DNA of 63,286 nucleotides, filler included, from Folioceros fuciformis (lineage: Eukaryota), in NCBI GenBank assembly GCA_049999805.1. It is 13 parts of 13 records of this genome, joined end to end, with 100 filler letters (N's around TTAATTAATTAA, not from the genome) between each part and the next. Parts side by side here need not be neighbours in the genome. Positions count along the whole stretch, not along the records: positions 17,566 to 24,060 come from JBNGIO010003495.1; 12 more parts are not named here. The stretch is one strand, 5' to 3'. Positions 11,460 through 63,286 of this stretch are shown here, piece by piece (the first letter of the stretch is position 1; each line of letters begins with the position of its first letter). Below the pieces are notes generated by a model. It was given only the letters and a program-made list of their open reading frames with translations, was not told the origin of the DNA and searched no databases. The position numbers and the translations under genes were made by a program.

Positions 11460-14400
11460 CAAATCCACCAGGAACAGCTGATAAGATTTAGAAGTGGAAG
11501 AAAGGGAATAGAGTCGCATTTGCTATCTTACTGTCTGGACTTGATGAAGTCACAATAAATGAAGTGGACTTTCTTGAGACAGCTTTTGAAGTTTGGGATC
11601 AGCTCACAAAGACTTACCAAGTCAATAATATTAGTTTCTACTCAAAATGAATTCTATGGTTTGAGGATGAAAGAAAGGGACTCTGTTGGAGCACACGTCA
11701 CTCAGATGCGCACTCTACGGGCACAATTGGCCGCGCTAGGAAGCAAGATGTCTGATTCGGATGCCATTGCCCAACTATTGTCCAGCTTGCCTTCATCCTA
11801 CCAGAATTTTGTTTCTAGTTAGAATTCAGCTCTTCGTGACTCCTACAAAGCTATAGCTGCTGGCCAACCTTTCCCCTTGAACATCAATGAGGTTATTGGG
11901 GCACTCCTGCAAGAGGAGCAAAGCCAAAGCCGGAGCAAGTCAAGGACTCGTTTCAAAGGCGACAAGGTCCTATATGCTCAAGCCAAAGGACCTTGGAAGG
12001 GGAAAGATAATAAAGGAGGCAAGAAGCAATCCAGCGATTCCAACTCACCTCCATCCTCTTTGACTAAAAGGCAAGGCAACTGCAATTGGTGCCAGATCCT
12101 AGGGCACTGGGAACGTGATTGCCTCAAAAAGAAGGATGGTGAGCCTAAGCGTGAAGCCAAGCAGGAGGTTCATACCACTTCTAAAGAGAAGAAGTTTGCT
12201 GGTTCTCAACACAGCTCACAACAGAAGAGCGGCAAATCAACTACAGCCTTGACATTGTCCAAATGGAATTCCTCACAATGGTTTGTCAACTCAGGAGCCA
12301 CGATGCACATCGGCAACAAACATGGTCTCTTCTTGACCTTTCACAAGCAGACATCACCACAGTCGGTATTTGTAGGCGACTCACGAGGTGTTCAAGTTAA
12401 GGGATCCGGTTCTGTGGACATACATCTTCTTGATGGGTCTTCCTTGTTGCTGGAGGATGTGCTATTGGTTCCAAACATTAGTAAAAACCTTCTGTCCATT
12501 AGGGCCATAGCTCGTAGTCACAAGTATGGGTTTAGGTTTGAGGACAAAACCTACTATGTCTATCATCTCACAGATCCAAAGAGTCATGTTGCTAGAGCAG
12601 TTCTAGTAGATGATCTCTACCAACTTATTACATTACATGAGTCAAAGGCTAGAGCTTTTCTTACTGCTTTTCATGCTCAAGCTAATCTGTGGCATGCTAG
12701 GTTGGGCCACGTTAATCGTTCTAAACTAGATTTGATGGTTAACTCTTCTTGCTATCGTGAGTAATTACCTCCTTGTTTCAAGCATCTTGTAGCCTACAGC
12801 TCTTGCATCTTGTCCAATAAAAAAGAACTGCCCTTTAAGAACAAACTAGCAACTCGAGCAAAGCATGTTTTAGAGCCTATACATTCTGACATTGCCGACA
12901 AGTTGCCTGTGAAGTCGCTTAGAGGAGCAGAGTACTACCTTACCTTAACTGACGATTACTCTCGATACACATGGACCTTTCCTCTCAAGTTGAAGAGCGA
13001 TGTGTTTAAGACTATCTCCACATGGATATAATAGGTACAACGACAGGCTGGTCAGCTGGTGAAGTGTTTTCGTACTAATAGCAGAGGAGAGTTTACTGGC
13101 AGATAGTTTTGATGATCTTTTTGCTACACATGGCATAATTAGACAACTCTCAGTCCCCTACACGCAGCAACAGAATGGAGTTGCAGAGCATAAAAATCAG
13201 ACCTTAATGAGCATGGTGAGGAGCATGCTGTCATGGTCTGCTTTTCCCAAGTCACTATGGACAGAAGCAATTGTGTGTGCCACTTACATCTTAAATAGGG
13301 TGGTCACTTCATCTCTTATAAGTAGGACTCCCTATGAGGCATTTTGGGGTAGAAAGCCAAGTCTTCTCTACTTGAAAATCTTTGGTTCCCCTACCTTTGC
13401 CCTTGTCCCTGAACATGAAAGGAAGAAGTTAGATGATAGGTCTAAGCCCCTCCTTTTTGTAGGTTATTATGAAGAGTCAAAGGCTTACAAACTTCTCGAC
13501 CCTATGACATCTAGGATTACCTTGTCCAAAAGTGCTACCTTCACTGAACTCACCTCTCGTCATTCAGATTCCTCTATAGAGCGGCTCTATCCTGTAGATC
13601 CTTCCATTGTTAGTGATGATGTGTTTTTTGGTCTAGACTTAGAGCCTACACAAGTGTTTTATCACTTCCCTGAATCTGACGGTGAGGAACAGCCTCATGT
13701 TGCTGCAACAGCAGAGCTAGATTCTGTTTAGGATGAGGATAATGCAGTAGTTCAAAACGATGCAGCCAATCCAGATTTTGCAGCAGTCCCAAACTTTTTG
13801 AATCTGGATGAAGGGGATGATCAGTTTGTTTAATCAATTGACTCACATGTTTCAGACAAACTTGCTGTGGATGGTGCTGCTTCAGTCGTAGGTGATGATC
13901 CTGTTGTGGATCATAATGATTTTGAGGAGCCTCCTCCACCTCGGTACCCTATGAGAGAATGTAGAGCACGAGAAGATTGGGCAGAGACACCTTATCAGTC
14001 CATTGATTTTAGGAGATAGTCCGCTCATGTTATAGATATGCGTGTACCTAAGGTGAGGCCTAACCCACAGAGTTATGAAGAGGCCCTTAATGGTCCTGAC
14101 AGCAAGCATTGGCGTGTCTTCATTGATGACGAATTCAATTCCCTAATGAAGAACAACACTTTGGAGTTAGCTGACTTACCACCTAGTCGCAAGCCTATCT
14201 CGGGTAAATGGGTTCAAAACCAAATTGAATGCTGATGGCACCATCTCAAGGTATAAGTCCAGGCTGGTTGCGAGGGGGTTTAGCCAGATCCCTGGTATTG
14301 ACTATGGAGATACTTTCTCGCCAGTTATGAAGTCTCCTTCAGTAAGGATCTTGTTAGCTATGGTAGCTAAGTTTGATCTAGAGTTACATCAGATGGATGT

Positions 14401-17612: not shown

Positions 17613-19944
17613 ATGGTCGAAATGGGATCGGAAGCTTGTCCACCGACGAGGAGAGTGGACCGGAGATGGCTTTCGATGCTGGAGATGGCGTTCCTGCTGG
17701 CACTTCTAGGCTGCGGCCGCTTCACCCCTGCTGTGGCACACGACGGGTACGTCTACAGTCCCTTCATGCCAAGCTGGACCGAACACACCGAGAAAATGGA
17801 CATCAAGGACGACGACCCCATCCCCGACTCGACGCAGCAAGAGGCTGTTGCAAGCTTGGAGAAGGCCCAGCAGTTTCTGCAGCGGGCCGGTGCTGTCCGG
17901 GTCACGGTCGGAAGCTGCAAATCCCAAATCAACGGGGCTGTCGGGTCCCTCACGTGGGTGGAGACGTACCTGCTGGAGAATGACCTCAAGAACGCCTTGG
18001 GGCAGCTTGATGGAGCCAAGAAGATCCTGGCAGACTGCAACTCCGCTCTTGGTCTCAGCACTGTAAGGCAGCCTGCATAGGTTTTGTGTGGCATGCATGC
18101 ATGGCGGGGGACTTGAGAGCAAGCATCCTGCCGCAGGCAACATTATCATCCCTTCAGCCCATTCCTTCCACACGAATACTACAGATGCACCAGTCTTTCA
18201 AGAATCAGAAAGAGCTGCTTGCTGCAGGAGAGGCAAATGTGGGGACAGGGCAACAAGCCAGCAGAATCACCAAGCACAAAGCATGCGCAGAAATAGTTGT
18301 CTTTGAAATCCAGATTGATGACTTGTGGTTTTTGCGTGCACCGGAGCTCTAGGTCAAATTAGGAAAGGCACAGCTGTTCCTGACCAAGAAAGCCATGGGC
18401 CACATCGAAGATGCAGTGGCAACCCTGAGCCCCCTGCTTGAAGGCAATCCCAACACCGGCAACAGTGGCGCAGGCCGCGGAGGAGGCAGTTCTCCAGACA
18501 AGCGTAAGATTCAATTCAGCAGCAGAAATGCTGCAACAAGAGCAGAATACAGCACAGGCCACAGGCCAGCATCAAGCACGACATCCATCCATGCCATGAC
18601 GCAATGCCCCTCCCTGCATGCAAGAGTGCACCCCATGAAGCTAGCAAAGCAGTCATGACACGTGCACGGACCTGACCTCCTCCTGCCCCTGCTGCCTGCT
18701 GTCCCGATCCCAGCTGTGGAAACCTGGGGAGACAACGGGGACAGCAACAGCAACATCTGCTCGGCCGACGGCACCAAATGCCAATTCTCCAGTTGCGGGG
18801 CCGGGAAGGCTCTCGGGACCTGCTCCTTCGGCTTCGCAGCGGGCGTGTCAGGGGGAGCTGGCGGGCAGAGCTACGTGGTCACCAGTCCCAGCGACGACCC
18901 AAAGAACCCGGCTCCCGGCACCCTGCGCTACGGTGTGAACCAGGGCGGGCACAGCAACGGGGGCGTGTGGATCACCTTCTCCAGGGACATGGTGATCGTG
19001 CTGCAGGACATGCTGTGGCTCCGCAGCGCCACCACCATCGACGGGCGCGGCCACAACATCACCATCACCGGCCGCAATATAGTGCTGGGCGGCGTCTCCA
19101 ACGTCATTCTGCACAACCTGCAGGTGAACTCGGTGGGCGAGAGCGACACCGTGCACATCTTCTCGGGCTCCTCCAGAATCTGGGTAGACCACATCACCTC
19201 CTTCGATGCCAAGCTCGGGCTCGTCACCGTCTTACAAGGCTCCACCGACGTCACCATCTCCAACTGCTGGCTCTCCAATCCCAATTTCAACATGCTGTTG
19301 GGGGCATCTGACGCCGACACCGAGGACCAGAACTTGCGCGTTACCGTCTTCCGAAACTGGTTCAAGGACTCCATGCAACGCATGCCCCACTGCAGGTACA
19401 TCTTCCTCCCTTCTTCCCTTCGTCCATCAACTCAACCAACCCATGTAATCAGAGCAGCGCAATTCCACCCAACATCCCTGCAGCAATGTTCTCCCTTGCA
19501 TCCAGTCGCTCCCCTCCAATGCATTGGATTACCCAAAGGCAGCCTAAACAAAAAGTTCTCCTCTCCAGGTGGGGATACTGCCATGTTGTCAACAATCTCT
19601 ACACCAACTGGGGATACTATGCCTTAGGAGCTCGAGTGCACGCCAAAATATTGTCAGAAAGTAATGTGTTCATTGCAGCTCGGCGAGCAGAAGTGACGCC
19701 ATGGTTTGCTGGTGACTCCACTCTGGACGAGACCGCCACAATCCAATCAGTCCGGGACCTGTTCCTCAATGGCACCACGTTCCACCAATTCCTCACTTTT
19801 GGCACGGCTGCCCAACCATCCTACGTAATCACTTCACACTATCCACCCATCAATCCTCCTAGTACACTCACACCTCTGGTACAACGTTGTGCGGGAGCTT
19901 TGTTTGGGCCCAAGCTCCAGCAATGTTTGTCTATATCAATCTAG
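17613..19944 (+). CDS. Secreted PMEI-like domain plus pectate lyase (PL1) fusion protein, 552 aa; join(17613..18062,18353..18503,18714..19395,19569..19944)
   Basis: Three GT-AG introns have consistent phases (0, 1, 2) and the CDS totals 1659 nt. There is a hydrophobic signal segment. PL1 motifs: GTLRYG, TIDGRG, WVDH, QRMPHCRWGYCHVVNN. The N-terminal helical domain has a C..C pair spaced as in PMEI; that assignment is less certain than PL1. Confidence 0.88.
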
Positions 19945-20477: not shown

Positions 20478-20508
20478 TAGGGTTTAGGGTTTAGGGTTTA
20501 GGGTTTAG
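20478..20508 (+). repeat. Interstitial plant-type telomeric repeat (TTTAGGG), about 4 copies
   Basis: TAGGGTTTAGGGTTTAGGGTTTAGGGTTTAG read directly. Confidence 0.85.
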
Positions 20509-20699: not shown

Positions 20700-20940
20700 A
20701 GATGTGTTTCCAAACAAACAAAATAATTGTAGAAGACCTGTTTTTGAACGAACAAAATAATTGTTGAAGACACGTCTTTAAATGAACAAAATAATTGTTG
20801 AAGCCATGTCTTCAAATAAACAAAATAATTGTTGAAGACATGTCTTCAAATGAACAAAATAATTGTTGAAGATTGTTTTCGAATGAACAAAGTAATTATT
20901 GAGGATGTGTTTTCGAATGAATAGAATAATTGTTGAAGCA
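20700..20940 (+). repeat. 34-bp minisatellite, about 7 copies, with a palindromic core
   Basis: AATGAACAAAATAATTGTTGAAGACATGTCTTCA-like units start at 20781, 20815, 20849 and onward. Confidence 0.9.
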
Positions 20941-21659
20941 ACTAAATATACAACAAGTGGCTTTTTGTATGCAACGATGCATATTGTTGACCCTTACAAG
21001 GGTGCTTGATAGGAGACAAAGGCCTAGCATAAAGTGCCCATATCACCCTCCTGACCAGGTCCGTATAGTAGTTACTCACGATTAGAGATATAACCTTATT
21101 TTATAATAAGGTATTTTATAATAAGGTTATACCCCTGTAACAAAATAATAAAATAAAATGTAAAAGATAATAAAGTTAAAGTCGACCCTCTCTAAATGTG
21201 ACCTCCATAAATATTATACCTCTACAAATGTTAAAAGAAAGGTTAAATATTATTTTTCAATAAATATCATATGTTACCTATTTTCCTAATTACTGCAATC
21301 TAACTCTATAAACGGTATTTGCATCAAAAATATTGTAATAAAATATCAGAAGATCATATTGAATTATTTATGAGGTTAATTTGAACTTATTTGAAGTAAA
21401 ACTTATTTTTAATTATATATTTAAAATATATAAATAGATTATGGTACATTTGTATACTTAAATATTTTATTCTCTAAATAAGCCTAAATTTTCTAAGTGT
21501 TACACCTTGGTAAATGTTACCCAATTGTCATAGTAGTAACCAACCCGAACCCTTTGCTGGCACAGACACATGGGCCGAAAGCCATGGCCGTAAATAGGGG
21601 GCCAGCTATGGCGCCTAGCAAGGACCGACTAGGGCACCCCCTCTTTATTTCGCATCCGA

Positions 21660-22500
21660 GTTGACACAAGGAAGATCAAAGGCATCTCTGACGGGCCGCT
21701 GCCACGGGTGCTCACTCAGTTAAGGGGTTTCCTTAGTATGGCTGGATTTTACAAAAGATTCATGAAAGACTTCAGTAAAAACACTCTTCCTATGACCGAT
21801 GCCCTCTGTCAGTCTGCAAGCAAGGAATTGCGATTGGGTCAAGATGTAGAACNNNNNNNNNNNNNNNNNNNNNNNNNNNNNNNNNNNNNNNNNNNNNNNN
21901 NNNNNNNNNNNNNNNNNNNNNNNNNNNNNNNNNNNNNNNNNNNNNNNNNNNNTGCACACCAACACGAGTGATTACGCCATTGCTGCTATACTCTCCCAGG
22001 ACGGCCAGGTGATTGCCTACGAGTTGAAGAAGCTACAGGGGCCGCAAGTGAACTATGCGGTGCATGACAAGGAGATGTTTACGATAGTCCATGCTTTGAA
22101 AATCTGGAGACACTATTTATTAGGCCAGCAATTCACCTGCCACACCGACCATCACTCACAGCAACATTTCTGCAGCTAACCAAACTTGAATGCACGCCAA
22201 AGACACTGGGCAAAGTACCTGGAGGACTTCAACTTTGACATTTGCTATGTCACAAGTCCTTCAAATGTGGTTGCAAACGCACTTAGCCACATGGCCTGCT
22301 CCCTCATGACCACACAACTGGACACCATCCGTCGGGTGCGTGAGGCTCTCCCACATGACAGCACCTTGTGGCAGATATATCAGCAGTTACTCACGGATGC
22401 ACATAATGGATAGCCCACATAGTTTATGCAGAAGTATACCATAAAGCATGCTTGCTTGTATCAGAAGGGTCGCTTGGTGATTCCCACACATCTCATAGAG
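21660..22500 (+). mobile_element. Decayed Ty3/Gypsy RT thumb and RNase H
   Basis: Motifs: LRGFLSMAGFYKRFMKDFS; SDYAIAAILSQ; NYAVHDKEM..IVHALKIWRHYLLG; TDH; LNARQRHW. Confidence 0.9.
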
Positions 22501-23293
22501 CTAATGGGCCACGTAATAAACCCTAAACCCTAATAACCCTAACGTCGTTCTATCACAGGGCACGTATATGTTTTTTTCTCAATCATATTCAGATAGATAA
22601 TTAGGTCCAAAATAGTCTAGCTTAGTTTAGTTTCGAACCATATTAGTTACAAGGTGTTTCTTGGCACGCGACCGGGCACCCTATATGTAGGCAGGATCAT
22701 AGCAATGAAGTTAGCCCATTTTGAGGCTCACTTGCATCTAAGGTTACCTATTCTGATCGAGGATCGCAACACCAATGCTCTACTCCTAATAGGTAACATT
22801 TAGGGAGGGCCAACTATATAACATCATATCTTCTCTATTATAAATGACCTACTATTCTAGAAGCTAATAGTTAAGGAACTTTGAGTGCTTATGCTATCAC
22901 CGAGAGGACTTGCTTGGTGGAGATAGGACCCCGCTGTCTTTCTTTGTGATTGTACTTGTACATGTGTTTGGGACTAGCCAAGAAATAGGCGTCCCTGCCC
23001 AACAACTAGGGTTGTTGGGCCGTTAGAAGTTTGTTAGAATTAGTTATTCCTAAGTAAAATGCTTAATGTTTGTTTAGGGGTAGTTTCTCTAGGGTTAATT
23101 ACTTATTTGATTTAAAGGCTACACGAAGTCACCTTAGTCTAAACTTGTCTTCAACCTAGTTGTCTGTCCCGTTTAGGAGAGTCTCGTTAGACACCTTTTG
23201 GGTCGGTTCCTGCTGCCCCGTCCGGCTATGGCTGGAGGCGGCTTCGTTCCCGTTAGCTACACACGCAGATTGGCCATGGCGGTGCGTGTGTCA

Positions 23294-24060
23294 TGCTCCC
23301 CCACTTAAGCTGGCCAGGTCCTCCTGGCCGATCTATCTCTGAGCTTGGGAAGCTTGCATCTGAGCCCGCAAGTGAGGGAAGTGATGGCAAAAGGCTGCGG
23401 GTTCCCAGGTTGCAGCACTGTCGGGTTCACATGTCCATGCCACGAGGAAGTTTGTTACACAACGAGAACGGAGCTGGCGATCGCGGCGCTAGAGGATACG
23501 ATGGGGCTAGTGAGGGCCAAAACTTGGCGGCTGGGCCAGGGTTTCCGAACCAGAGCAGTTTGGAACGGCGGGAGTTGCCAGGGGGGGGCACCTGAGCGAA
23601 GGAGCTTCCTGGGGCTGGCCTGGGCGGGGAAGAAGGGTGTGATGCTGGTTGCTGGTCGGCAGAGGGATCTGGTGGATGTGCAGGTAGGGTTGTGGTGGCA
23701 GGTGGTGGGCAGGAGATCACCGGTTTGAGCATGGAGACGTGAAACGCCTGCAGAGACGCCAATCAACGGGAAGGTCAAGCTGGTATGCGATTGGGTTGAT
23801 CTGCCTGGACACTGTGAAGGGTCCGGCGTACCAGTAGGATAGCTTATCCCGTGACTGGATCAGAGCTGGGTAGTGGTGAGGCTTCACACGAAGCCACACT
23901 TGTTGGCCGACGCTGTAGCAGACTGCCTGGCGATGCTTGTTAGCTATTTTACAGGATCTGTCCCGGGCAGCGAGGAGTTTCTCCTTCGCCAACTTGACCT
24001 CATGCCAGATATCTGATGAAGGAGGTTTAGGGTTAAACAACAAGCCGAAACGTAGTTAGA
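23294..24060 (-). mobile_element. Chromovirus Gypsy 3' end: integrase C-terminus, chromodomain and PPT. The 3' LTR starts at 23293 and runs toward lower coordinates.
   Basis: YAGPFTV...AYQLDLP...FHVSMLKP. A chromodomain reads PHRIL*RRDRQLRSRCVTNFLVAW..EPDSAATWEP...HHFPHL at ~23370-23510. The PPT AAGTGGGGGAGCA is followed by TG. Confidence 0.88.
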
Positions 24061-24306: not shown

Positions 24307-25080
24307 CTAATGATGCATTCTTGTACGACGCATTTCTTCAAATTCATGAATATACATCCACAACTCAGTATACCAAAATTCCCTTGCTGACTGATCATGG
24401 TACTGTTGAATAACATGTATTCCATGTTGTTGTATCATATGGATAATCCTTTCGTAATTGCGATCATTTATGCTTCATATTTCCGTAATAATATCCAGTA
24501 CAAGTTGAGCGTCACCCTGGGACAAAGGATCCATTTGTACTTGACTTTGTTGATCTTGAGATGTTGATCTATGGTTTGCGTGATCTCTAAGAGTAGATAT
24601 AAAAGTAGATGTAAGACGCGTTTCTTCAAAATCTTCAATATACCTTTGCAACTCATTAAACCACAATTCCCTATCTAATTCATCATTATAGTGTTGAATA
24701 ACACGTATTCCATGTTGTTGTATCATATGGTTAATCCTTTCGTAATCACGATCGTTTATTCTTCGTCTTTCTGTGATAATCTCGAATACAAGTTGAACGT
24801 CCTCGGGGGACAAAGAATCAATTTGTACCTCACCTCGTTGATCTTGAGACGTCGATGCATTCGAAACGTTGTATGCTATTTGTCGTCTGCATAGTGGACA
24901 TGTTGGTTGGTTACAATGAGCCAACCATTGCCTTAAACATGTTGTATGATATGTATGGGCGCAAACATTGAGTATTGTTATATCTTGGCCATGGTTAAGA
25001 GGGTTAAGACATATGGCACAAGTCTCGTCTCTTTGAAGAACAACATATCGAGATGTATCATAAAGCAAGCAAATATCCAT
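24307..25080 (-). pseudogene. Intronless RING-H2 finger ORF with two 96-aa tandem repeats and a premature TGA at 24475-24477
   Basis: C3H2C3 motif CAIC...CAHTYHTTC...W...CPLC. ATG at 25080. A 288-bp duplication is present. The frame continues past the stop to 24307. Confidence 0.8.
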
Positions 25081-25675
25081 TCCTCTAGAGGGAAAAACCC
25101 ACCACCCAAGAAATTGAATGTTAAGCAACTTTTGTATGTTGTTGTGCCTTGCCCTGGTCGAACTCTCTCTTGTGGTCTTCAACCAAGTATGCTCCCTACT
25201 CAAATGAAATCGAGGCCAAAAGAATCGGGATGGCTTAAGATAGATTGACACCTATCTTAAACAATGAAGTAGCTTGTGCTAAGCTAGTAGGATTTCTTGA
25301 GAAATTCTAATGGCTTAGAACAAGTGGATACATAACTTTAAGAATCAAGCACCATGTGTCAAGATCTCTAGTTATGTGATGCTTGGATCTCTTGTTGCAT
25401 GTTTTCATCTCTACTTATATGCTTCAAGCCCTATGCTTACCTATTCCCGAAATAGGTAAGTACACCATGGTAGAGGAGTTGTTAAGTACTAAATTGGTTC
25501 GGTTGCTAAAACAAACTATTCATAGACTGTTAGGTCATGATCAAAGTTATTAAATTATAAATTGATAATTAGGTGGATGGCCATTGTACAAGCCTAATTC
25601 AGCTTCATCTATCCTAAGGCCTTGCTTATCCCGTTGTCACCCACAATGAATTGCATTGCAGACTACTACCCATCC

Positions 25676-27223: not shown

Positions 27224-30056
27224 ATGGTGATTGCCCTGGCCGGGGCCATGGCTCTCTACTCCAGCTCGCCGCCCGCAGGAGTTTGGTCTTCGCAATGTGC
27301 GGTCGGGGGTAATGTCGCCGCAGGGATGGAAGTGGAGGTGCTGTCGCGGAGCACGGCGCATAATTCGGCGTCCAAGACTGGGGTGTTGGTTGGAGGGTTG
27401 TCGTCGATGTTTGCCAGCTCCGGGGCGCGCCATTCGGTGTGTGCCGGCGGGGAGGTGTCAGAGGCGCCGTGTTTGTCCATGGGGATGGTGCGGAGCGGGT
27501 CGCAGACAGACCTGGCGTCCTTCAGCGGGGGCTCCGAGAGCCGGAGCATTCCCAAGCTCAAGGAACGTAGTCCTGTGTCCGTGCTGTACGGACCTGGGGG
27601 ACCTGTTTCTGTGTCTGCCTCGAGTTCTGCTTCGCACTGCGGCTCGCATGGCTCGGCGATCTTGTCGCTGGCGTGCGAGTGGGAGATAGGGAGCGGGAGT
27701 GCCAGTACCAGTGGGGCGGATCACGTCTGGGAGCGAAGACGGTGGCCGTTGGACTATCGGAGGGGCGTGAGGGCCGACGGGTTTGATGGCAGGGGGGAAA
27801 GGTTGGCAGCTGCCTTTCGGTCCAGAGTCTTGGATCTGCGCAGGCCCGAGGCGGACCTGGGGTCCAGTGACTCGGAGGCGTCTGATTTTGGGGATGACTT
27901 GGAGCTCGAGGGTTTGCACACCGATGAGTCGGCTTGTACCGATGCCCTGCGTGGCCCGGCTTGGGATGTGACAGATTCTCGTGAGAGGCTTTTGGGCCTG
28001 GCGGGGAGGGCTGCTGGTCTTTCTGCGTCTCTGACTCAGGACGTGTCGGTGGCTGAGAATGTGGTCAAGCCCAAATCCCCTGATGAGATGCTTAGTGACG
28101 CCCAGAGGCAGCACCCAGTTTTCAAAAACTCGTCCGTTGTAAAAGCTTTCCGCACTGCACAAGATGCTCACAATGGTCAGGTACGTGTGGCAGAAATACT
28201 GCTGTTATTTCGCTCTTTGGCTGCGAGACTCTTGTTTTCATGTCTGGTGTTTGCTCGGTGTGATGCAGTTCCGCCGTAATGGAGATCTGTACCTGGCGCA
28301 TTGTGTGGAGACTGCCCAAATCCTGGCAGCTTCCGGGGCGGACAGTACGGTTGTTGCCGCCGGCCTGCTTCACGATACCCTGGATGACGCATCCCTCGAT
28401 GAATCACAGCTTCGTCTTGAATTTGGAGACGAAGTGGCTGGCCTCGTTCGCGGGGTATGTCTACTGCCTCTACTTTCTGTTTCACTGGTCATTGGAGTCG
28501 ATGACGCGGCTCCACGAGCTTGTGTGTTTGTCATGGGTTGTTTGCTTACAGCTCTGTTCTGCACTACAGGTCTCCAAACTGAGCAAATTCAGCCAGCTAG
28601 CTCGTGACAACAAAACTGTGTGCAACTCTGTGGAGGCAGATCGGCTACGTACCATGTTTCTTTCTATGGTGGATGCTCGTGTGGTTCTTATTAAACTGGC
28701 AGACCGGCTGCATAATATGAGAACGCTTGGTGCCTTGTCGCCTGCGAAGCAAAATCGCATTGCTGATGAAACTCTTCACATCTTTGCCCCTCTGGCAAGT
28801 CGACTGGGTATCTGGAGCTGGAAAGCTGAACTGGAGGATCACTGCTTCAGATATTTGAGGCCTGAAGAATATAACGAGTTGTCTCTGAGAACGGCTGAGG
28901 GAAGGGGTGAAGACGAGTTGCTGTCCTCTATCAAAGAACTGGACCAGGCTCTACGAGAGCAAGGTGTAGAGTTCACAGATCTCTCTGGCCGGCCCAAGAA
29001 TCTGTACAGTGTGTACTCGAAAATGATCAGGTAAGTAATCAAGCAGGAGCCTTTCCGGTACCCGTACGACCGTTTTTTTTCCCTTGTCCCTGCGCCTGTG
29101 CCTCATGAAGAATTTCTTCGCGTGTTGCAGGAAGGGCCGGCATATGGATGAAATATTTGACTATCATGGCCTACGTTTAATCCTTGAAGATGAGGCAAGC
29201 TGTTATGCTGCTCTGGAGGTGGTACACAGGCTGTGGTCACATGTGCCAGAGAAACTGAAGGACTACATAAAATCACCCAAAGAAAATGGGTAAGCTTCTT
29301 GGCCTTTTGTTTTTTCGCCTGATGTTGGTGACAGGAACTACTTCGAGTGCGACTTCTCCTAATTCGGTTACTACTGAATTACTGCAGATATCAGTCTCTG
29401 CATACTGTTGTTCGTGGTCGTGAAGGTCATTTTTTGGAGGTTCAAATCAGGACTGTCAAGATGCATCATCAGGCTGAATTTGGTCTAGCTGCACACTGGC
29501 GATACAAGGAGGGAAACCATAAGTATTCGTCTTTTATACTTCAGAAAGTGGAATGGGCTCGCTGGGTTCTGACCTGGCAAAGTGAGATTATGGATACCAA
29601 AGTCAGGCTGTCACCTGCTCAACCAGATCTCAGGCCACCTTGCCCTTTCCCTCTCCACAAAGATGACTGCCGGCATTCCTCTGTTTGCTATCTTCCTCCA
29701 CAACATGATGACGATCCTCTGTTTGTGATATTGTTGGAAAATGACAAGGTACTTGACTTTTCTTTATCTCACTTTTCAGTTTCACGTTGCTGTTTCGTCC
29801 CTCTTACGGCTACAGCTTTCTGTAAGAATTTTGCCTCTGATATGGGCAGTTCGCCTTCTGTCCGACACACGTGTTAACCTGAAACAGTGCTCGTGATGCA
29901 GATGGTTGTCCAAGAATTGGTACCAGGGTGTACAGCAGCAGATGTGATGGTGGAAAGACGAAAGACGTATCCAGACTGGGACTCCATATGTGCAACCGGA
30001 AGCTTTAGCAGGGAGATGAAGGCAAAAGTTAATTGCAAGTTTGTAGACGATGTTCA
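27224..30056 (+). CDS. RSH2/RSH3: RelA/SpoT homolog, RSH2/RSH3 class (ppGpp synthase/hydrolase, probably plastid-targeted), 3' truncated; exons 27224-28180, 28269-28454, 28570-29030, 29131-29289, 29388-29748, 29902->30056
   Basis: The N-terminus [16 protein letters not shown] resembles plant RSH2/3. HD-domain motifs [33 protein letters not shown]. Synthetase motifs [35 protein letters not shown]. Intron phases are consistent. Confidence 0.95.
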
Positions 30057-34069: not shown

Positions 34070-37000
34070 TGTTAGGAAGAACATAAGCTAGCCTAAACTC
34101 AATTGTCAACCGAACCGTCACGACGTTTCACGAACCGCTCTCATAAGTCTGAGCCCCTTGTACACTTATTACAATCAACATCTTCCTTTCCTTTCATGGT
34201 ATCAGAGGCCAACGAGCTTGAATGATCCTGTCTACTTCCTCTTAGAAGCTACCATCATGGATAGCAGAAGATCCCATCTTTCTCGAAATTGTCCTGGTGC
34301 TTCTAGAGGTGCAAAACATAAAATTCACAAGGCACCTCAAGTAGGTATGTCTCAATTCCAAGTGAGTCTGTCTCACCAAAAAACTACTCATACACTTTTG
34401 AGGCAATTATTCAGCCATCATCAAGCAAGGTCCCATGACCATGCTTCTCAATTAAATAGTCTTTTTAAGTTACTTTTATTTCTACTCAAACGAGTACTTC
34501 TAAGGCTCTATCCCTGACCTCCCTTATTGCTCTTATCATGCATGAAGCCATGATGAAGCAGTATTCCCCCTCTATGTCTCCTTCTCCACAGGGCCATGCT
34601 GCTCCTTACAGTAGTGGTAGGAAACCTTGGAAGCCTCTTTTTGGCGCTAATAAAACACCTTAGTTTTCTCCACCTAATCCTGCACATAAAGACAAAGTCT
34701 GCCATTATTGTGCTGCTGCTCCTTACAGTAGTGGTAGGAAACCTTGGAAGCCTCGTTTTGGCGCTAATAAAACACCTTAGTTTTCTCCACCTAATCCTGC
34801 ACATAAAGACAAAGTCTACCATTATTGTGCCACACGAGGACATATAGCCCCTGACTGTAGGAAGCGTAAAAGGGATAGGGCTAATGGTGTTGACATACCT
34901 TCTTCGAGTTCCACACCTAAGCCCTCTGCTCATACTACTAAGTCCGCTTTTCTCTTCATGGCCCGTACTTTGCCTTTTCCCCAAGCCAATGATGAATGGC
35001 TCATGGATTCTAGCGCTACGAAGCACATGACCTCTCGTCGTGAGTGGTTTCTCACTCTTGACGAATTATCAGCACCTTTTCTTGTTCAAGTTGGAAGTGC
35101 TGTCACTGTGAATGCCACCGGCAAGGGCGTTGTCCAAGTTCAACTTCCTACTAATCAAGTGGTTATGATCAGGGACGTTCTTCATGTCCCTGGCTTGGTC
35201 ATCAATCTGCTTTCTGTATTCAAGTGCCTCTCACATGATCAAAGAAGGATTTCTTTCACTCAACAAGGTTGTACCATCCATACCTTTTCACGAGAGGGTG
35301 ACATTGTGACTTTCACGTGCCCTCCTTGTAGCAGATTGTATCTGATAGCTCGAGGCATATTTTCTAGCCAATCGGCTCCTGTTCTTAGTTTTAGCACTAC
35401 CTACTTGCCTGTGGAATTAGAATCAAAGCTCTAGCATTTACGGTTAGCCCATCATCACCTTCACAGCATCAAAAGAATGCCTAACGAGGACATGGTTCTT
35501 GGCCTTCCTAAGTTCATTAGAGATATACCTCTTTGTAGTGGTTGCGTTCTTGGAAAACATAAGGTTCACCCTTATTCTCACTCTTCCATTCGCACCTCCA
35601 AGGTTCTCGAACTTATCCATGCCAATCTTAGTGGTCCGATGCAAACTGTCTCCCTAGGTGGCCATTCGTATCTCTTCTTGCTCCTGGATGATTTCAGGCA
35701 TTACAGACCCCTCTACTTTCTTCGTCATAAGCACGAAGCCCTAACTGCCTTTCGCAAGTACAAGGCTCTTGTTGACAATCTCACAGGCCACACCATCAAA
35801 GTCTTGCGCACAGACGGTGGTGGCAAGTTTATCACCTTCAAACCCTTTCTCCTTGCGGCGGGTATTCAACATCAAATGGCCACTCCTTATTCCCAATAGC
35901 AGAACAGTAAAGCTGAGAATCGCATAAAAGGAGTAATTACGGGTGGCCACACTAACCTGCTTGCTGCAAGTTTGCCTAACTTTCTCTGGGCAGATGCCAC
36001 TACTACTGCTTGTTATGTTCAAAATCGCTGCAGTACTGCCTCACTCCCAACTCAAACACCGTTTGAGTGTTGGACTGGGAGGAAGCCCTCCCTCACGCAC
36101 TTACGAATCTTCGGCTGTGATGGCTATCAACAAATTCCTTCCAAGCTACGTAAGAAATTAGACCCTAAATCGAAGAAGCTGACTTTCATTGGATATGGTG
36201 AAGATGAGGGTATCCAAGGATACAGATTGCTTGACACGGCTACCAGATGCGTTACTGTCAGCCATAATGTGATATTTGATGAAACACCTTTTCTGCATGC
36301 TTCCGCTCCGCGGGGCGTCCCTCCATTTGACAAATTCTCTTCAGATTCTGGTGTCATCTCTTATGATGAGGACTCTCTTATTCCGATGCCTTCCCCTCCA
36401 TCTATCCCTTACCTGTTCCTGCAATTCCTAACCCTGTTGCTGTTCCTCCACCGGTTTCTCTTTTAACTCCACCTACCAACTTGGCTCTTACTCCAAACCC
36501 TAATAATTCTCTTGAGGTTCCTGCTGTTGAGCTTGCTTTACCGACGTCTCCCCCTCAAACAATTGGCTCTAAGGATGATTGGGGCTAGAGTGTAGGTCTC
36601 TTCCCCGATTCTTCTCCTTCCTCTCCTCGTAGTGCAACACTTGAGGGCCCTCCTTTATTTGGTGACTCTCTTCCTTCTCTTGGCTCTTCTGATTTAGCTG
36701 CTTCACCTCCTCGCCCTCTCTCTCCCGGCATTCTAGGCCCTCTTCCTAGTCCTCTTTTACGTCGTTCTTCTCGTTCCACCCAAAGGGTGCCGACCACCAA
36801 GTTTGCAGACTTGGACTTTTCTCATGGCTATGGTGCTTGGACCCGTCCTCCTCAAGGGGACGAACCAACATCTATCTCTGAGGCTCAATCCGGGCCCGAA
36901 GCTGCTCAGTGGAAGAAAGCCACTGATCAAGAATATGCTTCACTCATCTCTAATAAAACATGGATACTCACAAATCTTCCTCCAGGTAAGAATCTCATCA

Positions 37001-38596
37001 CCTGGAAATGGGTGTACAAGAAAAAATACCGAGTGAATGGTACTCTTGCTCGTTACAAGGCCCGGCTTGTGGCCCATGGTTTTACTCAACGTGAGGGTAT
37101 TGATTACTCTGATGAGGGTGTATTCAGCCCTATTGTCAAGCTTACCTCTTTGCGTGTGCTACTAGCTTTGGCAACAATCCATCGATTGCATGTCCATCAA
37201 ATGGATGTGCAGACTGCCTTTCTTAATGGAGTCCTTAAGGAAGAAGCCTTCATGTCTCAACCTCAAGGTTATATCACTCCTGAACAGGAAAAGAAGGTTT
37301 GTAAATTGCAATGCACCATCTATGGGCTGAAACAATTGCCTTGAGCGTGGTATGACCGTTTTGATCAGTACATGACTAAGGTCAGGTATCATAAGACTAC
37401 AACTGATACTAATGTCTATGTCAGACGCTTAGTTTTAAGTCTAGTGATCATAGTATTGTATGTCGATGATCTAGCCATCTTTTCTGACAGTCTTAAGGTT
37501 CTCAAGCATGCTAAGTCATAGCTGAGCCCATAATTCAAAATGACTGATAATGGCATTCTAGAGTATTGTCTTCGTGTGCAAGTTAAATATGATGCTGAAA
37601 ATCAGACCATCACCATCCATCAAGCAAAGTGCGTCGATGATGTTCTCACCAGGTTCCACATGAAGAATTGCCATCCAATTGATACTCCTTTACAAGCTAG
37701 TGTAAAGTTGACCAAGGCTATGTCACCTCAAGACGATGCTGCAAGGGTTGCAATGAAAGCTCAACCTTATTGTCAAGCAATAGGCTCTGTTTAGCACCTT
37801 GTGCAGAACTCTCACCCCGATATTGCTTTCTCGGCTTCTCACACGTGTCAGTTTATGTCTGACCCTGGTCCTACTCATTGGTCCTCTGTGAAAAGGATAT
37901 TAAGATATCTTCAAGCTACTTGAAGCCAAGGCATCTAATACCATGGAAAGCATTCAAATTCTAACCTTTGTGGCTAGACTAATGCAGATTGGGCCGGAGA
38001 TCCTGATTCTCGAAAATCGTATACGGGTTTTGTTTTTACATTGGCTGGCGGAGCTGTTAGTTGGCAGTCCAGGAAGCATACCATAGTTGCTCTGAGTTTG
38101 ATTGAATCTGAGTACATAGCTGCTGCTACCGCTGCCAAGGAAGCTATGTGGCTCTGTCGACTTCTTCGTGAGCTTGGTTTCCCTCATGATGGCCCCATTC
38201 GTTTGATGTGTGACAAATAGTCCAAAATTGCGCTTTCTCAAAACTCAAGGTTTCACAATCGATCGAAACACATTGAGATGTGTTTTTACTTCCTTCGTGA
38301 GAAGGTGGAGAGTGGTGAACTATCACTAGCTTACACTCCTACGAGCGATTAGTGGGCTGATGTTCTACTATAGCCTTGCTGAACCCCAAGCACAAAATCT
38401 GCTGTAGTGGATTTGGGATGACATTAGCTGATGGCTCATAGCTCATCTCTAGTCTAGCTTAAGGGGGCGTGTTAGGAATAACATAAGCTAGCCTAAACTC
38501 AATTGTCAACCGAACCATCACGACGTTTCACGAACCGCTCTCATAAGCCTGAGCCACTTGTACACTGATTACAATCAATATCTTCCTTTCCTTTCA
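34070..38596 (+). mobile_element. Full-length decayed Ty1/Copia element: LTRs 34070-34196 and 38470-38596 (127 bp), PBS-Met at 34197, PPT ~38461-38469, TSD TAAAT
   Basis: TG...CA LTRs with 6 mismatches in 127 bp. PBS TGGTATCAGAG. TAAAT at 34065-34069 and 38597-38601. Motifs WLMDSSATKHM, LRTDGGG, YKARLVAHGF, QMDVQTAFLNG, LYVDD, ADWAGDPDSRKS. Confidence 0.97.
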
Positions 38597-60954: not shown

Positions 60955-63286
60955 GCAAGCCCAAGCCAGCTGAATGCTCATAGTGTTTTACTCGCCCTAG
61001 GGCCTTGGTCAGAATATCGGCCATCATGGCCTTTGTTGGGCAATACACCACCTGAATGATCCCAGCTGTGGCCAGCTCTCGAACATATTGGTGCTGGATT
61101 CCAATGTGCTTCGTCTTGGCGTGATACCTCGGGTTCATAGTGAGCGCGATTGCGCTTTGATTGTCGCAATACAGTTGGATTGGCAGCTATTGTTTGAAAC
61201 CCAGCTCTCAAAGAGCTCCAACTGTCCACACTATCTCCTTGCTGGCCTCGGTAAGGCTTTTAAATTCAGCCTCTGTGCTTGACAATGTGTGAACCTCCAA
61301 AGTTTGGGGTAGTAGTTTGTTTTGGTTGANNNNNNNNNNNNNNNNNNNNNNNNNNNNNNNNNNNNNNNNNNNNNNNNNNNNNNNNNNNNNNNNNNNNNNN
61401 NNNNNNNNNNNNNNNNNNNNNNNNNNNNNTATTTTTCCTAATTTTCCTTGATTTTCTGGTCATTTTTCCTATTTTTCTTTGTGCTAATTAAGTTAATTGA
61501 CCAGGAAATAGTTGGTTTGGTTATAAGAGTGGGTATAGGTTTGGTCCCAGAGCTGGGAAGGTTTAGGTTCAGTACCGGGCCATAGGGTTGGGTGATTAGT
61601 TTAATATTATTTAAAGATATAATATTAAATAATAATATAATAATATAAAATAAATATAATAATGGTTTGAACATAGGAAGGGGTATCTGGGTGTGTCAGT
61701 GTCAGGGGTCAGGGGTCAGGGTGAAGGGGCTTGCCCCTAGCTCTTGATTGTAAAGGGTGTGTCTTTCTCTCAACCTGTCCACTCTTGTTCCTTGCTTGGT
61801 CAAGTGCTGTAGGCCGGCCATGTCTCATGGCGTCTGGTAAGGTTGTGGGGAGGAGATACCCAAGAGGGGAGTGTGTTCCCTTCTTCCTTTTGTTTGGGGT
61901 TAGTCTAGTGACTCTTGCCGGGTAGGAGGAGTCTGTAGGGAAGTGTAGAAGGTAGTGGTGTCGTTGCTGGTTGCTGGTAGTTGTTGGTGTTGGTGCTGGA
62001 ACGAGAGAGTGAGTGAAGTGAGTGAAGGAAGTCGCAGATCTGAGAGGTTAGAGTCGTTGTAGTGGCTGGAGTGAGTTTGTGGGCACCGAGAGAGGTGCAG
62101 CTGACCGTCGGACAGCGAGGCCTGTCCTACGCCTGATCGGAGCTGGAGGGGAGCCCTCGAATCCATCATCGAGTTGATCAAGTCCGACCCTCCATCCACA
62201 GCAGCAAGGAACCCCATCGCTCCTTCGTGGGAACGAAACCCAATGTCTCAACGACAGTGGGATAAGTGTGGCCACTAAAGGTGGAACCCGTCGGCAATCA
62301 GTGCCCGGGGTTTTGCCTCCACACAATGCTATTGTTGGCTATTTCTTGCTGCTCCATCCAACTGCAGCTCTAGCTAGGAGGGTGACATAGCTCGACACAC
62401 TGCGTCGATCATCAGGGTCTCCTGCCCAATCTGCATCATTGTATGCAACCAAGGTAAGCGGCTTGTCTGCTTTTGCATTGTATAGTAACCCCCAATCTAC
62501 TGTTCCTGCCAGGTATTGGTACTGCCTGGTCATCAGGTCATTGTGCTTGGCATTGGGGTTTGATACAAACCTAGACGTCAGCCCAGAAGAGAAGCTGATG
62601 TCAGGCCTGGAACCGATCATCATATGCATGACACTACCATTTCTGGATGCATAATCCTCGACTGCAGGGATCTCTTCTTTAGGTATGTCCCCAACCTGTG
62701 CAGAATACTTGACATTCTGCTCTGCTAGGGTTGCCACTGACTTGCAGTTCTCCATACCATATCTTGCCAGAATTTCTCTAGTGTATTTTGCCTGATGCAA
62801 GAATATAGTCCCAGCTTTGCGATCTCTCACCAAATGCATGCCCAAGCAGAAGTGAAGAGGTCCAGAATCAGTCATCTTAAATTCTGAACCTAGTTGTTGT
62901 TTTACAATTCTGATCATCTTCCAGGAATTGCTCATGACAATAATGTCATCCACGTAAATGGCAAGTGCAAGCAAATTCTTTCCTTCTCGCTTGACATTCA
63001 CTTTGCTGTTAGCATGGATACTGACATAGGAGAGTGCATTCAGGAAGGCGTCTATGCGTACATACCAAAGCTCTTGGACTTTGTTTAAGTCCGTATATGG
63101 TTTTCTTCAATTTGCACACAGGTCGAGGAAGGTTGGACGTGACTGGAACCCCTTCAAGTACGTCCATAAAGATCTCCTCGTCTAGCTTGCCATAGAGGAA
63201 TGCGGTTTTGACATCTAACTGCTCCAACTCCAGGTCCTCGACAGCTGCTAGTGCAACAAACAGCCTCAGGGTCGTGAGCTTGACCA
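60955..63286 (-). mobile_element. Decayed Copia RT-RNase H interrupted by a solo LTR
   Basis: Motifs QLDVKTAFLYG, YGLKQSPR, IYVDD, DADWAGDPDDRRS, SKK*PTIAL|SSTEAEF, HAKTKHI, MMADILTKAL. Confidence 0.95.
61288..62323 (+). mobile_element. Family 1 solo LTR, internally deleted, with 5-bp TSD CAATG
   Basis: TGTG...CACA termini. CAATG at 61283-61287 and 62324-62328. Removing the LTR and one TSD copy restores IALSSTEAEF. Confidence 0.93.

Follow-up and report, generated by a model that had tools for sequence, protein, structure and literature searches.

We report that a gene of Folioceros fuciformis encodes a two-domain member of polysaccharide lyase family 1 (PL1) that has lost both DGLxD aspartates of the Ca site and keeps the catalytic Arg, a pattern that holds throughout the land-plant clade to which it belongs. 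This clade is apparently an undescribed, deep subfamily of PL1 in which the active site has been rebuilt and a cryptic PMEI-like domain is attached. Judged from the sequence, the protein may be a Ca-independent lyase for partly methyl-esterified homogalacturonan, a reading to which we assign a probability of roughly one half.

A four-exon PL1 gene

The gene occupies positions 17676-19944 (plus strand) of the window, by which we mean the whole 63,286-nucleotide stretch of F. fuciformis DNA that was analysed, and its open frame encodes 531 aa across four exons separated by three GT-AG introns. Assignment to PL1 rests on the Pfam match of exons 3 and 4 to PF00544, on the WxDH and RxPxxR motifs, and on the parallel beta-helix in the AlphaFold model of homolog P0003, which consists of four helices, a low-confidence linker and the beta-helix (mean pLDDT 87, pTM 0.69). 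Exons 1 and 2 have no Pfam match. The gene is organized as follows.

17676-18062, plus strand: exon 1, encoding a hydrophobic N-terminus, an acidic spacer and the first three helices of the PMEI-like bundle; GT donor at 18063, and joint 18062>18353 in a contig of a relative
18063-18352, plus strand: intron 1, 290 nt, GT-AG, phase 0
18353-18503, plus strand: exon 2, encoding helix 4 of the bundle, then a Gly/Ser/Asn-rich linker
18504-18713, plus strand: intron 2, 210 nt, GT-AG, phase 1; a loose contig end past 18503 runs into the start of exon 3
18714-19395, plus strand: exon 3, encoding a Cys-rich cap and the larger part of the PL1 beta-helix; PF00544, E 4e-15
19396-19568, plus strand: intron 3, 173 nt, GT-AG, phase 2, splitting the R407 codon (19395/19569)
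19569-19944, plus strand: exon 4, encoding the end of the beta-helix, R429, W452 and a C-terminal Cys pair, with a TAG stop

The joints of introns 1 and 3 are visible in contigs of a related organism and intron 2 is bridged by the loose end; the contigs come from four runs of uncertain type (RNA is a guess), three of them from relatives. One low-depth public contig is identical to the window over 19012-19223, with zero differences. By eye, the hydrophobic N-terminus is a probable signal peptide, and the nearest named homologs are from lycophytes.

Relatives' contigs from runs X2, X6 and X8 also join 18130 to 18682 at ends that are not splice sites, dropping 18131-18681, which takes in exon 2 and with it helix 4. 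The depth of this form exceeds that of the exon-2 form in X2 and X8, and splicing at the sites used in the window would put it out of frame. Helix 4 is also absent from homologs P0001 and P0007.

Inspection by eye revealed short telomere-type TTTAGGG tracts in opposite orientations at 20482-20508 and 22519-22543, a degenerate tandem repeat with a unit of about 37 nt at about 20715-20940, and, 3' of the lyase gene at about 21600-24055, what looks like a decayed gypsy-type pol. Pfam identifies Copia-type retrotransposon remnants at 11823-13731, 34781-37344 and 62339-63106, and neighbouring genes for a RING-H2 protein (24475-25251, minus strand) and a RelA/SpoT homolog (28264-29877, plus strand), for which no link to the lyase was seen.

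Loss of the Ca site and retention of the catalytic Arg

Residue equivalences were obtained by aligning a profile of 40 homologs to VdPelB (7BBV), with numbering as in bioRxiv 2022.11.09.515409. Translation of the window places ESDTV at 19139-19153, WVDH at 19181-19192, LGLVT at 19214-19228, PNFNMLLG at 19280-19303 and RMPHCR from 19379, and every motif that an earlier note on this DNA had read here (LGLVT, PNFNMLLG, ESD, WVDH and RMPxCR) is found in its place. The active-site features are these.

19145-19156, plus strand: D324 (VdPelB D122, a kept Ca ligand) to H327 (VdPelB G125, invariant in the clade)
19214-19228, plus strand: LGLVT, with L347 at VdPelB D151 and T351 at D155, both Ca-binding Asp replaced
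19286-19291, plus strand: F371 at the carboxyl-binding Lys (VdPelB K175; Trp212 in pectin lyases), then the clade-conserved N372
19379-19395, plus strand: RMPHCR, with the base R402 (VdPelB R208), the clade-invariant H405, and R407 (VdPelB R213)
19633-19635, plus strand: R429 (VdPelB R235), in exon 4, placed by the profile alignment

Ca is bound in VdPelB by D122, D151 and D155 (bioRxiv 2022.11.09.515409). The first of these pectate-lyase ligands is present in the window protein (D324), and the second and third are replaced (L347 and T351). Pectin lyases have an Arg at the position of VdPelB D151 and W212 at that of K175 (bioRxiv 2022.11.09.515409), and Arg176 of the fungal enzymes stands at the first Asp of DGxxD (PMC10992409, PMC3271051). 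The window protein has Leu in place of Arg176 and does have an aromatic residue at the W212 position, the equivalence being drawn through VdPelB. The likeness to pectin lyases proposed in the earlier note is thus a partial one, since the change from Lys to an aromatic parallels W212 but Leu rather than the pectin-lyase Arg replaces the first Asp. Three residues essential in the PL1 lyase VexL, namely R172, K195 and R235, are replaced in the window protein by Gly348, Phe371 and His405.

Conservation across an old clade

From 199 homologs and the window model we obtained 203 domains, removed 20 for low coverage, and built a midpoint-rooted FastTree phylogeny of the remaining 183. The window protein falls within a clade of 63 (SH 0.997) composed of 45 land-plant-type domains (0.987) and 18 algal-side domains (0.766), the latter from Closterium, Mesotaenium and Spirogloea, plus unnamed or protist-transcriptome records. 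VexL-like proteins lie on a separate branch outside the clade, which rules out kinship with VexL.

The 45 land-plant members are 57-87% identical to the window protein, and Asp is found in none of them at position 347 or at position 351 (0/45 each). Position 347 is Leu in 37, as in the window, and Arg in four, and position 371 is Phe in 39 and Tyr in five (44/45 together) and Lys in none. The catalytic R402 and the adjacent P404 are invariant (45/45), and R407 (44/45), R429 (44/45, with one gap), WxDH (44/45) and D324 (43/45) are almost so. Newly fixed in the clade are H327, H405 and R393 (45/45 each), W452 (44/45) and N372 (43/45), while neighbouring surface positions vary (K346 in 18/45, P369 in 6/45). 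K346 can be ruled out as a substitute cation because it is present in only those 18. The earlier note's description of an active site without the DGLxD aspartates but with the catalytic Arg therefore extends to the whole land-plant clade; it had asked whether orthologs retain DGLxD, which would mean a local mutation or error, and such an origin is refuted by the clade-wide absence of both aspartates. Among canonical plant lyases the two DGLxD positions are Asp in 49/52 and 52/52, and Glu occupies the carboxyl-binding Lys position in 16/52; in the short-loop group the two are Asp in 65/65 and 55/65.

The algal-side domains carry Arg at position 347 in 11/18 and still have Asp at 351 in 12/18, which suggests that loss of the Ca site went stepwise through a pectin-lyase-like Arg state. 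As the tree is midpoint-rooted, this order of events rests on species relationships rather than on the root. The base Arg is replaced by Met in 5/18 of these domains, and H327 is absent in 9/18. Closterium proteins P0038, P0062, P0064 and P0267 are tandem two-domain lyase-like proteins with Pro-rich N-termini and the change from the catalytic Arg to Met, and are likely to be true pseudo-enzymes. Cryptomeria has a tandem expansion of the clade (P0063, P0221, P0223, P0035, P0037, P0083, P0222, P0227, P0234 and P0110), mostly without the N-terminal bundle, and in three of the copies D324 is lost as well and the former Ca site contains an insertion.

A profile search in which the best 8000 candidates were scored yielded 80 clusters, 73 of them with a source name. 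The named members come from mosses, liverworts, lycophytes, ferns, gymnosperms, Amborella, Nymphaeales, magnoliids, Acorus, Ranunculales, Proteales, Tetracentron and zygnematophyte algae. Among these 73 the monocots are represented by Acorus alone and the core eudicots not at all, and our other homolog searches agree; loss of the clade in core eudicots and most monocots is likely. The F. fuciformis genome has one match of the Ca-site-less type among 11, and five canonical loci in the same genome keep DGLID and HDKV. Marchantia has one cluster (MARPO_0005s0015), Physcomitrium two, and Selaginella moellendorffii has four loci of the clade type.

The N-terminal PMEI-like bundle

Two features of the N-terminal domain can be placed on the window.

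17829-18433, plus strand: PMEI-like four-helix bundle, about aa 52-156, split by intron 1; placed from models of homologs P0003 and P0008
17916-17918 and 18036-18038, plus strand: Cys81 and Cys121, spacing 40, read from the sequence; the spacing is the same in kiwi PMEI

The helix 2-3 Cys pair of the PMEI family is thus present and is predicted to form a disulfide. Folded alone, the bundle of P0008 gives an AlphaFold pLDDT of 89, and AtPMEI1 (1X8Z) ranks first in both fold searches (TM 0.85, E 7e-3; Z 15.7, rmsd 2.5, 108 residues aligned, PMEI residues 29-149). Kiwi PMEI and tobacco invertase inhibitor take ranks 5 and 7, and unrelated bundles are nearly tied with the best (Z 15.6 and 15.2). 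For the P0003 bundle the ten best named Atlas hits all belong to the PMEI family (score 0.77, a lead only), and the three-helix piece encoded by exon 1 of the window returned generic Atlas hits only, with no PMEI among them. The Pfam PMEI model (PF04043) matched one of 40 homologs, at E 0.078, and neither exon 1 nor exon 2 of the window, and a search of PDB sequences with the clade profile, taken to E 10, brought up no PMEI. Comparing the clade alignment, profile against profile, with six PMEI fragments from the F. fuciformis genome was uninformative (probability 1.4%, E 0.038). Prediction of a complex between the P0003 bundle and its own lyase domain, run without an alignment, scored 0.00 and speaks neither for nor against an interaction.

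The N-terminal anchor region of PMEIs, which carries a second disulfide, contacts PME (PMC6213510). This region is absent here: the window protein has no Cys between residues 14 and 80, and the fold match starts at PMEI residue 29-32. Fewer than 140 residues precede the lyase domain in 12 of 49 members checked (one more was unparsed, and some may be short gene models), and the Cys pair is mostly missing from the angiosperm members checked.

The bundle is also found on algal lyases. The bundle profile scores 22.7 bits against Chara P0084 (best of 100 shuffles 6.8), 17.5 bits against the unnamed P0161 (shuffles 4.5) and 11.9 against Spirogloea P0079 (shuffles -1.6); P0157 is marginal (7.6 bits, shuffles 4.8) and Mesotaenium P0088 not significant. 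All five carry the Cys pair with spacing 40, and the DGLxD and HDK motifs are complete in P0084 and P0088. At E < 0.01 the profile matches two of 24 algal-side clade proteins. Because the bundle occurs on algal lyases with intact Ca ligands, the fusion predates the loss of the Ca site and is independent of it. The connection that the earlier note had drawn between the two is thereby weakened. Its PMEI-like domain is upheld by fold and Cys spacing, and its suggestion that this domain keeps the substrate methylated is weakened by the missing anchor region, by the absence of the bundle from the records of several members and by its presence on Ca-intact lyases.

The group of algal PL1 lyases with a Cys-x39-Cys helical domain comprises P0084, P0088, P0157, P0161, P0079 and P0207, several with intact Ca ligands, and in three of them an RRxL-type dibasic motif lies upstream of the helical domain. 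Of the PMEI loci, the one that the bundle profile matches best (E 0.009) is L020 (G000:C6317:734072-734434, minus strand), a weak PMEI-family match that is not beside a PME hit.

That the domain is a working PME inhibitor, keeping local pectin methylated for the lyase, is in our view unlikely. The first rank of 1X8Z, the kiwi-like Cys spacing and the uniform Atlas hits of P0003 speak for it, but it must be set against the lost PME-contacting anchor, the near-absence of Pfam matches, the equally high scores of unrelated helical bundles and the failure of the window's own three helices to recover a PMEI in the Atlas, as well as against the short N-termini of a quarter of the members checked, the lack of the Cys pair in most angiosperm members checked and the occurrence of the same domain on algal lyases, Chara P0084 among them, whose Ca ligands are intact or nearly so. 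We take the bundle to be an older, separately inherited appendage, which would most likely act as a pro- or targeting domain rather than as a PME inhibitor.

Proposed activity and its alternatives

We propose that the protein, a two-domain member of an old streptophyte PL1 clade, is a secreted lyase that would cleave homogalacturonan by beta-elimination without enzyme-bound Ca2+. By its equivalence to VdPelB R208, R402 would abstract the C5 proton. The carboxylate-neutralising set of the +1 subsite (two Asp and one Lys) is gone, and the subsite would now be hydrophobic (L347 and F371). Such a subsite would fit a methyl-esterified residue, in which the C5 proton is already more acidic. The ester carbonyl of that residue might, more speculatively, be hydrogen-bonded by N372 and H405, which like H327 are placed relative to the substrate from the strand register. 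R407 and R429 would grip neighbouring residues, probably including free carboxylates, and their retention makes a partly methylated substrate more likely than a fully methylated one; R429 stands at VdPelB R235, one of the groove residues described as typical of pectate lyases (bioRxiv 2022.11.09.515409). The preference for methylated pectin advanced in the earlier note would thus be favoured by loss of the Ca site but limited to partial methylation by the kept R429. The site is envisaged to have arisen stepwise, with the algal Arg at the first Asp giving way to Leu, the second Asp being lost, and Lys changing to Phe in land plants.

Strict conservation of the base and groove arginines and the hydrophobic turn of the +1 subsite favour such a lyase, as do the aromatic change and the algal Arg, both as in pectin lyases (for the features compared: PMC10992409, PMC3271051, PMC7406575). 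Against a Ca-free lyase, all known neutralisers (Ca, Arg176 and Lys) are missing at once from the land-plant form, and the residues corresponding to VexL K195 and R235 (the H405 position), both essential in VexL, are replaced. The D151R mutant of VdPelB is inactive (bioRxiv 2022.11.09.515409), so an Arg at this position does not by itself give a Ca-free enzyme.

In losing Ca, the pectin-lyase Arg and the Lys together, the land-plant clade appears to have gone further than either pectin lyases or VexL, and this keeps alive the idea of a catalytically dead or nearly dead pectin binder, perhaps a wall scaffold, a sensor or a carrier that brings the PMEI-like domain to pectin. Retention of the arginines would be expected just as much of a protein that only binds, each of the lost groups (both Ca ligands, the Lys and the Arg at the H405 position) is essential in a tested relative, and the base replaced by Met in algal-side domains indicates that dead versions do arise in this lineage. 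We nonetheless think a dead binder, though a real rival, improbable, since the base and the Pro that follows remain invariant while surface neighbours are free to vary, and since it is on the catalytic face that the newly invariant polar residues are grouped. Of similar but slightly greater weight, and still unlikely, is an active lyase with another neutraliser or substrate. A metal site (Mn, Ni or Zn) might have been rebuilt from D324, H327 and S/T351, or Ca might be carried by the substrate; the substrate might instead be acetylated homogalacturonan or rhamnogalacturonan. D324 and the invariant H327 share a strand next to the position of the lost second Asp, and His-based Mn/Ni sites are known in PL2 (PMC10992409), but only one acidic ligand is left, Leu and Phe occupy the former site, and half of the algal domains lack H327. 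The kept R429 and the dependence of VexL on an O-acetylated substrate (PMC6003464) also count in favour of this reading.

That this is simply a conventional Ca-dependent pectate lyase of unusual sequence seems very improbable. PF00544, database names such as 'putative pectate lyase 21' and a plant PL1 as the best fold match all point that way, but the names are automatic, all 45 members are without the Lys and without two of the three residues through which the protein would bind the primary Ca, and altering the first of the lost ligands kills VdPelB. A sequencing error, local mutation or pseudogene might be suspected from the position of the gene among retrotransposon remnants and assembly gaps, and can be practically dismissed in view of the open four-exon frame with its GT-AG introns, the identical pattern in 44 homologs and the spliced contigs in a relative.

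The Ca-independent lyase acting on partly methyl-esterified homogalacturonan can be set in a wider and more tentative scheme, which taken as a whole we regard as doubtful. Plants would have their own Ca-free pectin lyase, evolved stepwise and independently of the fungal one, with an Asn/His site that dispenses with Ca, Arg176 and Lys; it would have persisted from the algae up to the basal eudicots, with losses in core eudicots and in most monocots. The bundle, present on PL1 proteins in Chara and Zygnematophyceae, would be the older home of the PMEI fold and the later source of the PME pro-region and of free PMEIs.

Relation to published work and implications

In the full-text literature searched, drawn mostly from outside subscription journals, neither the clade nor its active site nor the PMEI-lyase fusion is described, no member appears to have been assayed, and MARPO_0005s0015 is not mentioned. 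The alignment of pectate lyase-like (PLL) proteins of McCarthy 2014 (PMC4108027) includes three Selaginella and seven moss ids; compared by row name, none of the three Selaginella ids is one of the clade's. The published count for S. moellendorffii is three PLLs (PMC6482432), to which the four loci of the clade type are additional; in their relevant passages that paper and a Penium preprint give family counts only. An 18-residue deletion is described for clade 5 of Zhang et al., in which one Selaginella gene encodes a signal peptide (bioRxiv 2024.12.04.626843), and the gene list of that study may bear on the identity of our clade.

The seeming absence of the clade from core eudicots and grasses explains why it has been missed. 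To our knowledge, plant pectin-cutting enzymes are generally taken to require de-methylated pectin, and Arabidopsis-centred work would have missed a pectin-cutting route of the kind predicted here. If the prediction is true, Ca-free cutting of esterified pectin would permit wall loosening without prior PME action and would represent new PL1 chemistry. The single Marchantia cluster and the two of Physcomitrium make knock-outs straightforward, and the PMEI-like bundle on algal lyases is a testable candidate for the origin of the PME pro/PMEI domain.

Comparison with known systems

The bundle shares with PF04043 and the type I PME pro-region a four-helix fold, the helix 2-3 Cys pair and a position N-terminal to a pectin-acting beta-helix, but differs from PF04043 in lacking the anchor hairpin and second disulfide, in lying below Pfam detection and in being fused to a lyase. 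The window protein also lacks the dibasic processing motif of the type I PME pro-region. Wang 2013 places proPME after the algae and leaves the origin of the pro domain open (PMC3741192), whereas the PMEI-like bundle is already present in charophyte algae.

The best structural and sequence match of the lyase is the plant PL1 protein Jun a 1 (1PXZ; E 9e-69; Z 41.1, rmsd 2.3, 315 residues aligned, using the P0003 model for the fold). WxDH, RxPxxR and the first Asp are common to both; unlike plant PL1 proteins the clade is without DGLxD and has an aromatic in place of Lys/Glu, a His where the middle Arg would be, the additional PMEI-like bundle, and a loop 19 residues shorter than that of canonical plant lyases (23 versus 42). 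Ca sites are reported as conserved in all published PLL clades 1-5 (Zhang et al., bioRxiv 2024.12.04.626843) and are absent here.

VexL (6FI2) of Achromobacter is second-best (E 5e-54; Z 37.6, rmsd 2.8, 308 aligned, again with the P0003 model for the fold), and has the short loop in common with the clade. It is an EDTA-insensitive, metal-independent PL1 lyase acting on O-acetylated Vi antigen, an esterified polyuronate, and thus establishes that PL1 folds can work without metal; it requires O-acetylation of its substrate, and K195A and R235A mutants show both residues to be essential (PMC6003464). VexL keeps D171, R172, K195 and R235, which are replaced here by Leu, Gly, Phe and His, respectively.

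Fungal pectin lyases are more distant (pectin lyase A Z 31.8; 1QCX E 7e-9; Foldseek rank 21), which rules out descent from PL1_4 when set against Jun a 1, and makes the likeness to these enzymes convergent. Like A. niger PnlA and PnlB (1IDJ, 1QCX), the window protein has the first Asp, the Arg base, an aromatic at the Lys position and no Ca site, and algal members of the clade share with fungal pectin lyases the Arg at the first DGLxD Asp. The window protein differs from PL1_4 in having Leu for Arg176 and in keeping R407 and R429. The clade is pectin-lyase-like in part, and stands outside PL1_4.
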